From the NCBI GenBank assembly GCA_964016885.1, contig OZ024740.1, forward strand, positions 124,000,001 to 124,064,000: DNA of 64,000 nucleotides, read 5' to 3'. The stretch is from Eledone cirrhosa. Taxonomy: Eukaryota. A program made the position numbers and the translations under genes. The notes below the pieces were generated by a model. The model searched no databases, had not been told where the DNA came from, and saw only the letters and a list, made by a program, of their open reading frames with translations. This document shows, piece after piece, positions 9,720 through 53,972 of the stretch (positions are counted from its first letter, which is position 1; each line of letters starts with the position of its first letter).

Positions 9720-10240
9720 ATATATGTATGTAGATATAGTGTATTTTGCAATACAATGTATGTTTAATTAAAAGCATTTTGAAGACCTTACGCTACTGTT
9801 TTAGAGTAGTGACAGTCTCACTTACTTTAAATTTTCAGCAAACAGAGGGGGATAAAGCTGACAGAGCTCTGTTTCCTACTATTTGGTACTTATCAAAGCT
9901 AAGTACTCCATCTGTTTGCTGAAAATCATGAATATTTGATTCTTATAGAATTCTAGTAATAAATCAGGAACTGATTATACAGAGCGGTTGCCGGTCAAGC
10001 AGTAATTGAAAATTAGAATTGGTGCTCTGACAAAGCGATATATATATGAATGTATATATAGTGTATTTTGCAATACACTGTATGCTTAATTAAAAGCATT
10101 TAAAGTAAGTGAGACTGTCTCTACTCTAAAACAATAGTGTAAGGTCTTCAAAATTCTTTTAATTAAGCATACAGTGTATTGCAAAATACACTATATATAC
10201 ATTCAAATATATATCGCTATTTCAGAGCACCAATTCTAAT
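9720..10240. mobile_element. Non-autonomous HHR-bearing repeat: 322-nt terminally redundant arm plus inverted partial arm (retrozyme/PLE-like)
   Basis: GTGTATTTTGCAATAC at 9739 and 10061 (period 322). 10098-10240 is an inverted copy that runs across the unit junction. (TA)n on both flanks. Confidence 0.8.
9856..9900 (-). ncRNA. Degenerate type I hammerhead ribozyme
   Basis: Minus strand: AGCT-TTGATAA-GTAC caaata GTAG-GAAAC-AGAGCTCT-GTC-AGCT. Helix III is the palindrome ACAGAGCTCTGT. The core has two changes from CUGAUGA. Enclosed by a perfect 16-bp helix (9831-9846/9911-9926). Confidence 0.7.
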
Positions 10241-10264
10241 ATATATATATATATATATATTATG

Positions 10265-10565
10265 TTGGTACCCCAAAACATCCAGCCCACATTGTAAAGT
10301 GTCATGTAGGAGTCACGATAAAAAGCACCCAGCCCACACTTTAAAGAGGTTGTATAACAGACATGTCAAAAAGCACCCATCACACACTATAAATGTGCTT
10401 GGCATTAGGAAGAGCATCCAGCCATAGAAAACCAGCCAGAAACAGTCCTATATGAGCAAGATATGGTCACCCAACCCAACTTGCCTCTAAATGGGACAAA
10501 TCTTTCTAACCCATGCTAGCATGGAAGATAGACGTTTAACGATGATGATGATGAAGATGATGATA
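10265..10565 (+). mobile_element. RTE-type 3' UTR fragment (similar solo fragments at ~30730-30908, 34840-35040, 36745-36965 minus, 46200-46530)
   Basis: Repeated CCACA-NTGTAAA-GTG units, GGCATTAGGAAGAGCATCCAG motif, (GAT)n tail. Confidence 0.8.
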
Positions 10566-10905
10566 TATGTATATATATATATATCACATTCCTTGTTGTA
10601 TCTTGTTGGCTTGGCTACAGCCAGAGCTTCGATTTTACCAAACTTTCATTTATATATATATATAAAGTGAGAGAGAGAGAGAGATAGGGGGAGAGAAAGA
10701 GATAGATAGGGGAGAGAAAGAGATAGATAAATATATATATAGAGAGTAAGAGATTACTAGATAGATACAAAATTAAGATCAAGGGTATAACATTGATATA
10801 GAGAAGTTACAAAAAAAAATAACAGATTTTTCACTAGCAATGTGGGTATAGCTGAAGATATGTAATGAAAACATTGAGAATTTCACTGAGATTAAAAGAT
10901 GGTAA

Positions 10906-11775
10906 GGAGCTACCACTATTAGCCGCTAAAGGGTTCTCCCTAAAAATGAAAGGCAGGTTGTATGATGCCTGCATACGAACAGCAATGTTGCATGGCAGTG
11001 AGACCTGGGCATTGTGTGCAGAGGATATACGCAGACTAGAGAGAAACGAAGCTTGCATGCTCCGCTGGATGTGTAATAGTAATATACGTGAACGACAAAG
11101 CATAAACGAACTAAGGAAAAAATTAGAAATAAGAGGGATCAGATGTTGTTTACTAGAGAGAAGGCTATGTTGGTATGGTCACGTGATGCGCATGAAGGAC
11201 GATAGCTGTATAACAAAGTGCAGGGCAATAAAGATAGACGGTAGCCACGGAATAGGCAGACCCAGAAAAACCTGGGACGAGCTGATAAACTCTGACCTCA
11301 CACACTTACACCTCACCAAGACAATGTCACTGGACCGAGACCTTTGGCGGTACTCAGTAATAGAGAAGACCCGCCTTACCTAAATACAAAGTAAAACCTA
11401 CTACAGTCAGTAGGCATCTCTAACAAAATACACCCCCGTCCCACCACCCCCACCCCATCCACACCGCCCCCTTCTATGTAAAGTTATGTTGGTGCCACAC
11501 CATCCAGGCCGAAACAAATGAGATCGTGTAGGTGTCACGACAAAAAAACACACAGTCCACGCTGTAATGTGGCCGTGTAGGCAACACGGTAAAAACCTCC
11601 CAGACCCACACTGTAAATGTGGTTGGTGTTAGGAAGGGCATCCAACTGTAGAAAACCTGCCAGACAGTCCTATGCAAGCAAGACAATCACTCTTGCCTCA
11701 AGTGGGAAAACCCCCGTCCAAACCCATGCAAGCGTGGAACACAGACGTTAAACGTTGATGATGATGATGATGATG
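10906..11775 (+). mobile_element. RTE subfamily A, 3' fragment
   Basis: ORF 10865-11383 C-terminus is nearly identical to the 47347-47820 region; same 3' UTR and (GAT)n tail. Confidence 0.95.
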
Positions 11776-12554
11776 AAAGACAGAAAAAAAAGAGAATAAA
11801 GATGAGGTAACTCTACATCCATAGCTAGAAAGCATATCTCAACTCTGCCTCACAGACAAGATGGGGAAATTGATGCTATAGAAAACAAGCGGTGATATTT
11901 ACTACATCAGCTGTTCCACCTTATGGGGCTCCATTATCAGGCCTGGTTTGATCATTCCAAATATAGTTGAAAAAAACCCAGCAGTGCACGGATCAAGGGA
12001 GCTAGAAACTGGCAGAAAAGATTACAAGATTTCAAACCAACACAAAATGGTTTCATCTAGAGAATTGGGGGAGATTGTCTGGAGAAAAAACGATTTAAAT
12101 GGGAAAATAAAAAAGGCTATTTTGGAGTTCCATTTGAAACATTGTGATTTCACTTGCAAATAAAAAAAATCATTTCTAAAATTGGCCAGAATTTTCTACT
12201 ACAAGCAATGAAATATAAAAACAATAAAATCTCACTTAGTTTGTCCACAAATGAAGGCCACATAGGAGATAGGCAATATAGATTTGTCAGAATATTGCTA
12301 ATCCAACTAAAACATATTAAAAATATGACTCAGTGAAAATTATTAGTCCCTTTATGATCTGGTATCTGCCAATGGGTTAAGTCAACTTTACTAGGTTCAA
12401 AGAGATATGGGGAATGGGTTGATGATGATCATAGTCACTGGTAAGCTAGGTGCAATCATGAGAATTGGAAATTAATTAAAACTGGACTTCTGACACAGTT
12501 CTCTAGTATTTTCTTGCTTATGAGATTTTCTGAGCATGTAATACATATTGAGAG

Positions 12555-52200: not shown

Positions 52201-52594
52201 TGATATATATATATATATATATATACACACACATGTGTGAGTGTGTATGTATATATGTATGTATATATACATACATACATATATATATACATGCATATAT
52301 ACATATATATACGCACACACACACACATATATATATATATATATATATATATATATATATATATATATATATATAATTAAGTTAAAGTGTACATCTACAT
52401 ATGTATACGGAAGTACTAGTATGCATATAAATACACACATGTATACATATGTACATGTACTGAGTTTTTCACTAGACACTTTGCGGTGAGTGTCCAGCTA
52501 GTCTGTATGTAACTAAACAGACAAACCGGGTTTTAAAGTCATACGAGTTTTCAAGGAAACACACTTCCTCCATTCTCCAGAGAGCCAGACAGGA

Positions 52595-52637
52595 ATATTG
52601 GACTAGTTTCGATGTTATTACATCTCATCAGCAATAT
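52595..52637 (-). ncRNA. Type I hammerhead ribozyme, intact core
   Basis: Exact reverse complement of 53242-53284. Confidence 0.92.
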
Positions 52638-53241
52638 ATACCCATCTTCCGGCTTCTCTAGAGAATTGTAAAAGCACATATCGTTATATGCTTTTTCTAT
52701 GAAAATTAGTAGTGGGCAGACTAATTTGCATAGAACGTGAGTCATTGTACGCACCGGTTCAGCGGAAACGATAAAAACAAATAACGAAACGAAATTAAAT
52801 TTCGTTTCGCTTCTAACTCACTTTTGTATGACTGACGCTTAAACAATTAAGTTAAAGTGTATATCTACATATGTATACGGAAGTACTAGTATGCCTATAA
52901 ATACACACTAGCTGGACACTCACCGTAAAGTGTCTAGTGAAAAACTCAGTACATGTACATATGTATACATGTGTGTATTTATATGCATACTAGTACTTCC
53001 GTATACATATGTAGATGTACACTTTAACTTAATTGTTTAAGCGTCAGTCATACAAAAGTGAGTTAGAAGCGAAACGAAATTTAATTTCGTTTCGTTATTT
53101 GTTTTTATCGTTTCCGCTGAACCGGTGCGTACAATGACTCACGTTCTATGCAAATTAGTCTGCCCACTACTAATTTTCATAGAAAAAGCATATAACGATA
53201 TGTGCTTTTACAATTCTCTAGAGAAGCCGGAAGATGGGTGT

Positions 53242-53284
53242 ATATTGCTGATGAGATGTAATAACATCGAAACTAGTCCAATAT
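53242..53284 (+). ncRNA. Type I hammerhead ribozyme, intact core
   Basis: ATATTG-CTGATGA(53248-54)-GATGT aata ACATC-GAAAC-TA-GTC-CAATAT; helices I and II perfect; helix III is the palindrome ACTAGT; predicted cut after C53278. Confidence 0.92.
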
Positions 53285-53607
53285 TTCTGTCTGGCTCTCT
53301 GGAGAATGGAGGAAGTGTGTTTCCTTGAAAACTCGTATGACTTTAAAACCCGGTTTGTCTGTTTGGTTACATACAGACTAGCTGGACACTCACCGCAAAG
53401 TGTCTAGTGAAAAACTCAGTACATGTACATATGTATACATGTGTGTATTTATATGCATACTAGTACTTCCGTATACATATGTAGATGTACACTTTAACTT
53501 AATTGTTTAAGCGTCAGTCATACAAAAGTGAGTTAGAAGCGAAACGAAATTTAATTTCGTTTCGTTATTTGTTTTTATATATATATATATATATATATAT
53601 ATATATA

Positions 53608-53972
53608 TATAAAGAAAAAGAAATGAAATCGAAAATGCAACTGGAGTCTTATTTTTTTTTTTAAATATATATATTTATTTGGTTCCTTTACCGGTTCGCA
53701 GTTCTTCTGCTTTTCAAAAGGTGAGTTGAGATGGAGGGTCTGTGGTTTTTCTCACATCAGATGTGAGAAAACCCACAGACCCTCCATCTCAACTCACCTT
53801 TTGAAAAGCAGAAGAACTGCGAACCGGTAAAGGAACCAAATAAATATATATATTTTTTTTTAAAAATAAGACTCCAGTTGCATTTTCGATTTCATCTCTT
53901 TTTCTTTATACTTTCACTCATGTAGGACACCTCGGTTATTTTTCATTTTGTAAAAAAAACCTCACTTTCTAA
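53608..53972. mobile_element. ~300-bp near-perfect palindrome (centre 53759) with degenerate HHR-like motifs; PLE pLTR-like
   Basis: Arms 53608-53758 and 53760-53910; CCTT-TTGAAAA-GCAG aagaa CTGC-GAA-CCGG-TA-AAGG at 53797-53833 with its mirror at 53685-53721; (TA)n flanks. Confidence 0.7.

Follow-up and report, generated by a model that had tools for sequence, protein, structure and literature searches.

How did five different insertions, each carrying a hammerhead ribozyme (HHR), come to share one head-to-head architecture within a short stretch of DNA? The question is raised by a 64,000-nucleotide stretch of the Eledone cirrhosa genome (contig OZ024740.1, positions 124,000,001 to 124,064,000), referred to here as the window, in which a preliminary description made from the letters alone had recognised five insertions, designated E1 to E5, and had proposed a new ribozyme system driven by Penelope-like elements (PLEs). 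The follow-up analysis has led to an answer considered probable as a whole: the five are head-to-head insertions with Penelope-type ends, of which E2 and E5 are truncated coding PLEs and E1, E3 and E4 were likely copied in trans, and their two arms arose by twin priming from both strands of the target.

A self-comparison of the window has placed the five insertions where they had been described, all with a left arm on the minus strand, a right arm on the plus strand and outer ends in (TA)n. HHR cores were located in E1 at 9896 (minus strand), in E2 at 27029 (minus) and 28581 (plus), in E3 at 36596 (plus), in E4 at 52631 (minus) and 53248 (plus), and in E5 at 53717 (minus) and 53801 (plus), and the palindromic helices III or loops described earlier were confirmed at these cores. 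The parts of the insertions are the following, with 3' ends given, here and throughout, in nucleotides (nt) downstream of the HHR cut; pLTR denotes the pseudo-long terminal repeat of a PLE.

9716..10101, minus strand: E1 left arm, 1.2 units of a 320-nt non-coding unit, short 3' end at +143
9851..9900, minus strand: E1 type I HHR with a U3-A8 core (TTGATAA) and a helix III palindrome of 12 nt; in this copy, helix II has a mismatch
10098..10240, plus strand: E1 right arm, without HHR, 3' end at the long site (+169)
26772..27654, minus strand: E2 left arm, Hydra-type PLE pLTR with HHR (core 27029) and 3' untranslated region (UTR); long end with tail, at about +184
27654..28120, plus strand: E2 GIY-YIG endonuclease (EN), Hydra-type C-terminal fragment with an in-frame stop, 93% identity to the EN region of locus L151
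28117..28693, plus strand: E2 right arm, pLTR, HHR core 28581 (long helix II, loop ACATGT), short end at +51
36066..36279, no strand: E3 outer mosaic, a short fold-back and pieces of two other repeats, outside the E3 family
36280..36335, minus strand: E3 left arm, 3' half of the HHR and 49 nt downstream
36350..36661, plus strand: E3 right arm, about one 320-nt non-coding unit, HHR core 36596, atypical end at +33
52375..52908, minus strand: E4 left arm, 1.1 units of a 470-nt non-coding unit, HHR core 52631, short end (+228)
52898..53577, plus strand: E4 right arm, 1.45 units, HHR core 53248, long end (+300)
53576..53611, no strand: (TA)18 common to E4 and E5
53608..53758, minus strand: E5 left arm, Neptune-type PLE pLTR stump, U3-A8 HHR (core 53717), short end (+80)
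53760..53972, plus strand: E5 right arm, pLTR stump, HHR core 53801, long end, tail of about 62 nt

The architecture first described holds overall, except that the E1 right arm has no HHR and that the outermost 215 nt of the left side of E3 consist of pieces of other repeats, the window copy of E3 being atypical in this respect. The cores of E1 and E5, formerly taken for HHR remnants, are instead U3-A8 variants, present in 62 of 65 E1 matches and 41 of 43 E5 matches at the fetched loci (overlapping loci counted more than once); only the window copies are damaged, E1 by its helix II mismatch and both E5 arms by the loss of one A of GAAA. Within the window, Rfam matched E4 only, with Hammerhead_HH9 at 32.9 and 30.8 bits, both under the gathering score of 52.

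Each of the five represents a family found throughout the genome, with head-to-head arms and, in its terminal repeat, a minimal type I HHR. First-look searches returned 1832, 1608, 2398, 707 and 887 candidates for E1 to E5, respectively, of which 37-40 were scored per search, and exact HHR patterns were matched 1372 times for E4, 322 times for E1 and 80 times for E3, with no match for the reversed control. An HHR descriptor applied to unselected genomic sequence (980 kb in all, from five places chosen arbitrarily) found 45 HHRs and only 0-1 in each of five shuffles, so that the genomic HHRs are not due to chance. The arms are also oriented non-randomly, as had been supposed: in the same sample, opposite-strand HHR pairs of one family were divergent at 16 loci and convergent in one pair (one array being counted once), and among the first 100 exact E4 matches, each of the 15 clusters with both strands was divergent.

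As a separate observation, this sample (L167-L264) contains about 46 intact minimal HHRs per Mb, the majority belonging to a diverse Hydra-type class with a TATATA-like palindromic loop, together with many distinct Hydra-type reverse transcriptase (RT)/EN families. A rough extrapolation gives more than 100,000 minimal HHRs per genome. An E1-like U3-A8 HHR near position 1039 of L283 (minus, reoriented) carries a change on both sides of helix III that keeps the palindrome.

The evidence on the mechanism comes mainly from the 3' ends. In four of the families these fall at two fixed sites: +226-232 and +291-300 in E4, +141-143 and +166-172 in E1, +80 and the end of the tail (about +142) in E5, and about +51 and +184 in E2. 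The tail that separates the short from the long site measures 26-135 nt across the families. One arm with a long end was paired with one arm with a short end in 80 of the 81 scoreable two-armed loci, that is, those with both ends at fixed sites, once duplicates and one-armed copies were excluded. By family, this pairing was found in 16/16 E4 loci plus 13/13 picked by position, in 13/14 E1 loci plus 12/12, in 9/9 E2 loci, and in 17/17 E5 loci, for which the query itself forced one long end. The start sites of E4 and E1 have a hairpin (z -2.5 and -3.4), which is absent in E2 and E5, and a hairpin common to all start sites was consequently discarded. In two seemingly one-armed, long-ended E4 copies (L301 and L336), the opposite side has an inverted mini-arm of 7-11 nt from the short site.

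Two of the families are ends of protein-coding elements. The arms and EN fragment of E2 are 87-95% identical to locus L151, whose translations, spread over several frames, contain RT, linker and EN with DKT and a CxCX5C linker and without CCHH; no intact open reading frame (ORF) was seen in L151, which has a long 3' UTR and (TA)n flanks. A Pfam search with these translations gave no match, and an Atlas feature match was to a cluster with 40% GIY-YIG at 0.95. Judged by sequence motifs (DKT, CxCX5C, no CCHH, (TA)n target) and not by a tree, E2 is a truncated PLE of the Hydra clade. The parent of E5 (L164) has a single 753-amino-acid frame with GLKF, DKG, RT, a CX4CxxC linker and a CCHH GIY-YIG EN, in which RVT_1 (E 3.6e-4) and GIY-YIG (E 3.7e-4) were recognised below the Pfam cut-off; compared with PDB sequences, the protein gave no hits. 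On the same kind of motif evidence E5 is the pLTR of a Neptune-type PLE, a label that does not separate Neptune from Nematis by a tree, and most E5 copies are pLTR stumps beginning about 70 nt before the cut. In both families RT and GIY-YIG EN are linked to the pLTR, as in EN-containing (EN+) PLEs, and upstream the arms continue into 3' UTR and EN and not into another unit.

Only one of the five insertions had been thought to encode protein. The E2 endonuclease is indeed there, but as a fragment with an in-frame stop, and E5 also derives from a coding element. At the sampled loci, non-coding HHR families are accordingly supported for E1, E3 and E4 and not for E2 and E5. RT or EN sequences near E5 or E3 in L097, L100 and L073 were rejected as coding parts of these families, as they belong to separate adjacent insertions behind TA runs. 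Inside the E2 internal TA tract of L151, a second Hydra-type PLE family was observed (1586-4959), with an apparent duplication of the tract and with no HHR found by the descriptor used.

E1, E3 and E4 are built differently. Their repeat periods are 320, 320 and 470 nt, respectively, each unit being free of ORFs and containing one type I HHR, and arms exceeding one unit continue into the preceding unit. No E4 arm passed into coding DNA in 21 similarity-picked plus 25 position-picked locus rows, and none of the 44 EN hit rows from the sampled loci had E1, E3 or E4 as its own pLTR. The units have a GC content of 0.33-0.42 and fold strongly as circles (z = -10.0, -5.6 and -3.7 for E1, E3 and E4, relative to 40 linear-shuffle controls folded as circles). 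On these testable sequence features, the three are classed as non-LTR retrozymes, and an enzyme of the PLE kind is likely to have copied them in trans. That families would prove to be pLTRs of autonomous PLEs, the outcome foreseen as contrary to the original proposal, was found for E2 and E5 and not for E1, E3 and E4 at the loci examined.

The five families are distinct, but "unrelated" was too strong a word: a segment of about 100 nt upstream of the HHR is common to E3 and E4 (p about 0.001 from 3000 shuffles, as one among 30 segment comparisons), and these two are distantly related. There is also a 468-nt relative of E4, about 67% alike, which keeps the HHR core and the long end, has changed helices and is without ORF. 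Tandem repeats with units of 457, 482 and 522 nt (98-99% identity) were also noticed, at G000:C2:150213818-150217213, C2:150234212-150235547 and C3:200178421-200179413; two of them contain loose HHR-like words, and they may be further retrozyme families.

Long arrays give some indication of the template. Between its precise ends, one E4 insertion holds 3 units in inverted and about 27 in direct orientation, with 0.6 mismatches for each pair of units and variants that are almost all singletons, as a single pass around a circle would give, a uniformity that assembly polishing could mimic. In the 468-nt relative (G000:C3:200076300-200084900, L214-L215), which has an inverted left arm, 14 units alternate between two types differing at three A/G sites, and a 4-unit E4 array alternates likewise. 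A dimeric circle would produce this alternation, and so could a duplication of two units. Circular RNA of E1, E3 and E4 is putative, being deduced from the sequences. The three A>G differences suggested an imprint of A-to-I editing, a candidate that was rejected, as no notable excess of A>G over T>C was found (per 1000: 6.1/5.1 in E4, 7.5/7.3 in E1, 13.4/16.6 in E3, 4.5/3.6 in E5 and 9.3/5.1 in E2).

The comparison of arms within E4 was more direct. Mismatch rates were 68/8061 (0.84%) within an arm and 105/12872 (0.82%) between the arms of one insertion, compared with 2.79% between loci, from which it follows that both arms were copied from one template sequence; two different source RNAs per insertion were ruled out as a rule for this family. 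The inner ends of E1 and E4 are scattered around the unit, joined mostly with 1-5 nt overlaps or small inserts, and either arm may be the longer one; with no pile-up at the cut site, a cleaved linear RNA was rejected as template. The E5 inner ends cluster instead, 24 of 38 lying at -67 to -74, and the right arm of the window copy also has its inner end at this -70 hotspot, which may reflect run-off from an RNA 5' end. Two E4 copies at non-TA sites carry target duplications, one of 16 bp and one of about 12 bp. A paralogous empty site was recovered for 1 of 87 loci, and that site had no TA run.

Chimeric insertions join families. In L156, an RT-EN-pLTR arm of Hydra type with a long end meets an E1 arm with a short end. 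L158 has a long E3 end at its left and, at its right, a short end of this Hydra family, whose arm switches to two E3 units. This Hydra family has its own long-plus-short copies at three loci. The partner search covered a sample of the genome, and the two chimeras point to a Hydra-type helper for the retrozymes.

These results can be accommodated in the following scheme. An RT/EN protein, probably acting as a dimer, would nick the two strands of an AT-rich target at positions about 12-16 bp from each other. Each nicked 3' end would then prime a cDNA inside the RNA by a few bases of UA homology, one at the near and one at the far of two sites flanking the tail. The two cDNAs would extend for independent lengths, after which microhomology-mediated repair would join them head to head. 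A self-cleaved and ligated circle or an uncleaved multimer is likely to have been the template of E1, E3 and E4, provided that the ribozymes are active, and on such a template the arms would run on past the cut site into additional units; E5 would often have been copied from a short RNA, likely beginning about 70 nt upstream of the cut site. Priming by a PLE RT/EN at both nicks had been part of the preliminary description, and the fixed ends, the long-plus-short pairing, the independent arm lengths, the 12-16 bp duplications and the two chimeras lend it support. More tentatively, and with rather more doubt than confidence, the integration complex may be a built-in asymmetric dimer that makes one far and one near cDNA at each event even from two RNAs, with long-lived families of circular, sometimes dimeric, HHR RNAs riding on Hydra-clade proteins in trans through rolling-circle reverse transcription, the chimeras naming the helper.

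An inverted arm could also result from single priming, if the first cDNA (or an antisense RNA) folded back and was copied, with EN trimming one end to leave a one-sided tail. Self-priming is proposed in passages of PMC3846280 and EN-mediated resolution in those of PMC8557442; fold-back predicts both the identical arms observed in E4 and the tail on one side, and symmetric junctions do occur (2 of 17 E4 loci and about 11 of 19 E5 loci). However, the symmetric E5 junctions lie at one position, as expected of run-off from an RNA 5' end, and most inner ends of E1 and E4 are unequal. In the window copy of E2 and in L104, it is the short-ended arm, the one without a tail, that extends further upstream, an outcome that fold-back copying cannot give, nor can arms made from different RNAs, as in the chimeras, be fold-back copies of each other. 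Twin priming is therefore favoured as the probable mechanism, fold-back being an unlikely one. A lower probability still is given to E1, E3 and E4 being pLTRs of their own unsampled coding PLEs, with tandem units derived from local DNA duplication of solo pLTRs. Such a parentage holds for E2 and E5; Xenopus retrozymes match pLTRs in 21 transposable element entries, according to the text available from 10.64898/2026.07.22.740005; DNA-level expansion is visible in the large arrays; and 37-40 of the 707-2398 candidates of each search were scored. Nevertheless, dispersed copies at dozens of loci cross one common unit junction, each with precise PLE ends, which makes the unit itself the template; the variants in a 26-unit array are nearly all singletons; and the diverged E4 relative keeps unit length and HHR without any ORF. 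Least probable by a wide measure, and largely refuted, is the view that the inverted pairs are separate insertions in one TA run or later DNA rearrangements. PLE-type ends do accumulate in shared TA runs, and E4 and E5 share one in the window, but no TA separates the arms where they join, 16 of 17 cases face outward, the two arms resemble each other as closely as do tandem units within one arm, and a long end is paired with a short one.

Several observations weigh against twin priming on circular templates by a Hydra-type enzyme. Outside the 81 loci, off-site ends were found at 3 E4, 12 E1, 3 E5 and 2 E2 loci; within the 81, the one exception, E1 locus L051, is short/short; and the E3 ends are dispersed, with 3 of 14 two-armed loci long-plus-short, 2-3 of the same type and the rest off-site. 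One-armed copies account for 4 of 21 and 9 of 25 rows of E4. The divergence test is uninformative for the older families E1 and E3. Only two chimeras could be scored, their Hydra family is common, and nesting followed by deletion is possible; a third chimera (L155), involving another Hydra family, is not counted with these two. An E4 array of at least 28.5 kb (G000:C1:95620986-95649500, L318-L320) has higher-order repeats, which means that arrays also expand after insertion; since it begins at a precise short end, it is a retrozyme insertion turning into satellite DNA. In addition, the in vitro work on Poseidon cited below, in the parts available, records neither a strand difference in start site nor primer homology.

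Most of the architecture has precedents, and E1-E5 are not a new class of element: what they share is the published PLE architecture, in contrast to the new ribozyme system first suggested. Inverted arms, the one-sided tail, TA targets, U3-A8 cores and the link between retrozymes and PLEs are already published. In the available parts of PMC3846280 and PMC8557442, a tail on one of two inverted pLTRs is a common feature of EN+ PLEs, and the present insertions resemble these in their head-to-head pLTRs with one tailed, the short target duplication, the AT or (TA)n targets and the HHR in the pLTR; they differ in that long-plus-short pairing has been counted here (80/81, four families) and extends across different RNAs. 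The same parts of PMC3846280 report no cross-mobilisation between its two PLE types. L151 agrees with the Hydra clade as outlined in PMC8557442 (DKT, CxCX5C, C-terminal EN without CCHH, HHR, (TA)n), whereas the E2 parent has a long 3' UTR, a 50-nt helix II in its HHR and no intact ORF seen. L164 is like Neptune-type PLEs in GLKF, DKG, the CX4CxxC linker and the CCHH GIY-YIG EN, and differs in the U3-A8 core and in the prevalence of stumps starting about 70 nt before the cut.

E1, E3 and E4 resemble the metazoan non-LTR retrozymes as far as these are described in the portions consulted of PMC7229834 and 10.64898/2026.07.22.740005, with non-coding tandem units of 320-470 nt, one type I HHR in each, a GC content of 33-42%, strong self-pairing and copies ranging from monomers to large arrays. 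They differ in their minimal, dimer-type HHRs, the PLE insertion signature and the fusion to a Hydra-type arm. In the latter source, retrozymes are argued to be non-autonomous PLE derivatives from co-occurrence and pLTR similarity; the word "inverted" does not occur in the main text of PMC7229834. According to the sections available from PMC11167929, Poseidon from Anolis nicks and extends both strands in vitro, starts reverse transcription at two internal sites and is a predicted dimer; these two sites, bracketing the tail, match the two ends found here, which differ in lying on UA microhomology and in pairing long with short. PMC4209133, in its available part, describes the U3-A8 variant in Schistosoma PLEs, minimal HHRs with palindromic helix III and a dimer-type fold, opposite-strand HHR pairs 100-700 bp apart and a proposed circular template; nothing essential differs here, apart from the longer E1 palindrome (12 nt) and a compensated variant in a related copy. 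A literature search on HHRs and PLEs in cephalopods and on PLE twin priming, consisting mostly of title-level listings, found no description of these families. The texts and listings consulted yielded no counted long-plus-short rule, no PLE insertion signature on retrozyme units and no chimeras suggesting a helper; these three are what appears to be new here.

Two further features of the window were observed. A long interspersed repeat is present in both orientations with copies 70-96% alike (2489-5394, 7449-8845, 10856-11792, 15319-16802, 46933-50386, 54378-54764 and 61780-63488), and a G-rich tandem array with 33/41/74-nt repeats at 39310-40094 could encode a low-complexity peptide.

The origin of inverted, tailed PLE insertions and the enzyme that moves animal retrozymes are presented as open questions in the available parts of PMC8557442, PMC7229834 and 10.64898/2026.07.22.740005. 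Thousands of copies in this genome record both, through the near-invariant long-plus-short pairing, the arms made from one template and the chimeras with Hydra-type elements, and because an in vitro PLE system exists, the predictions can be tested directly. The long-plus-short pairing likely records that both cut DNA ends each started a copy.

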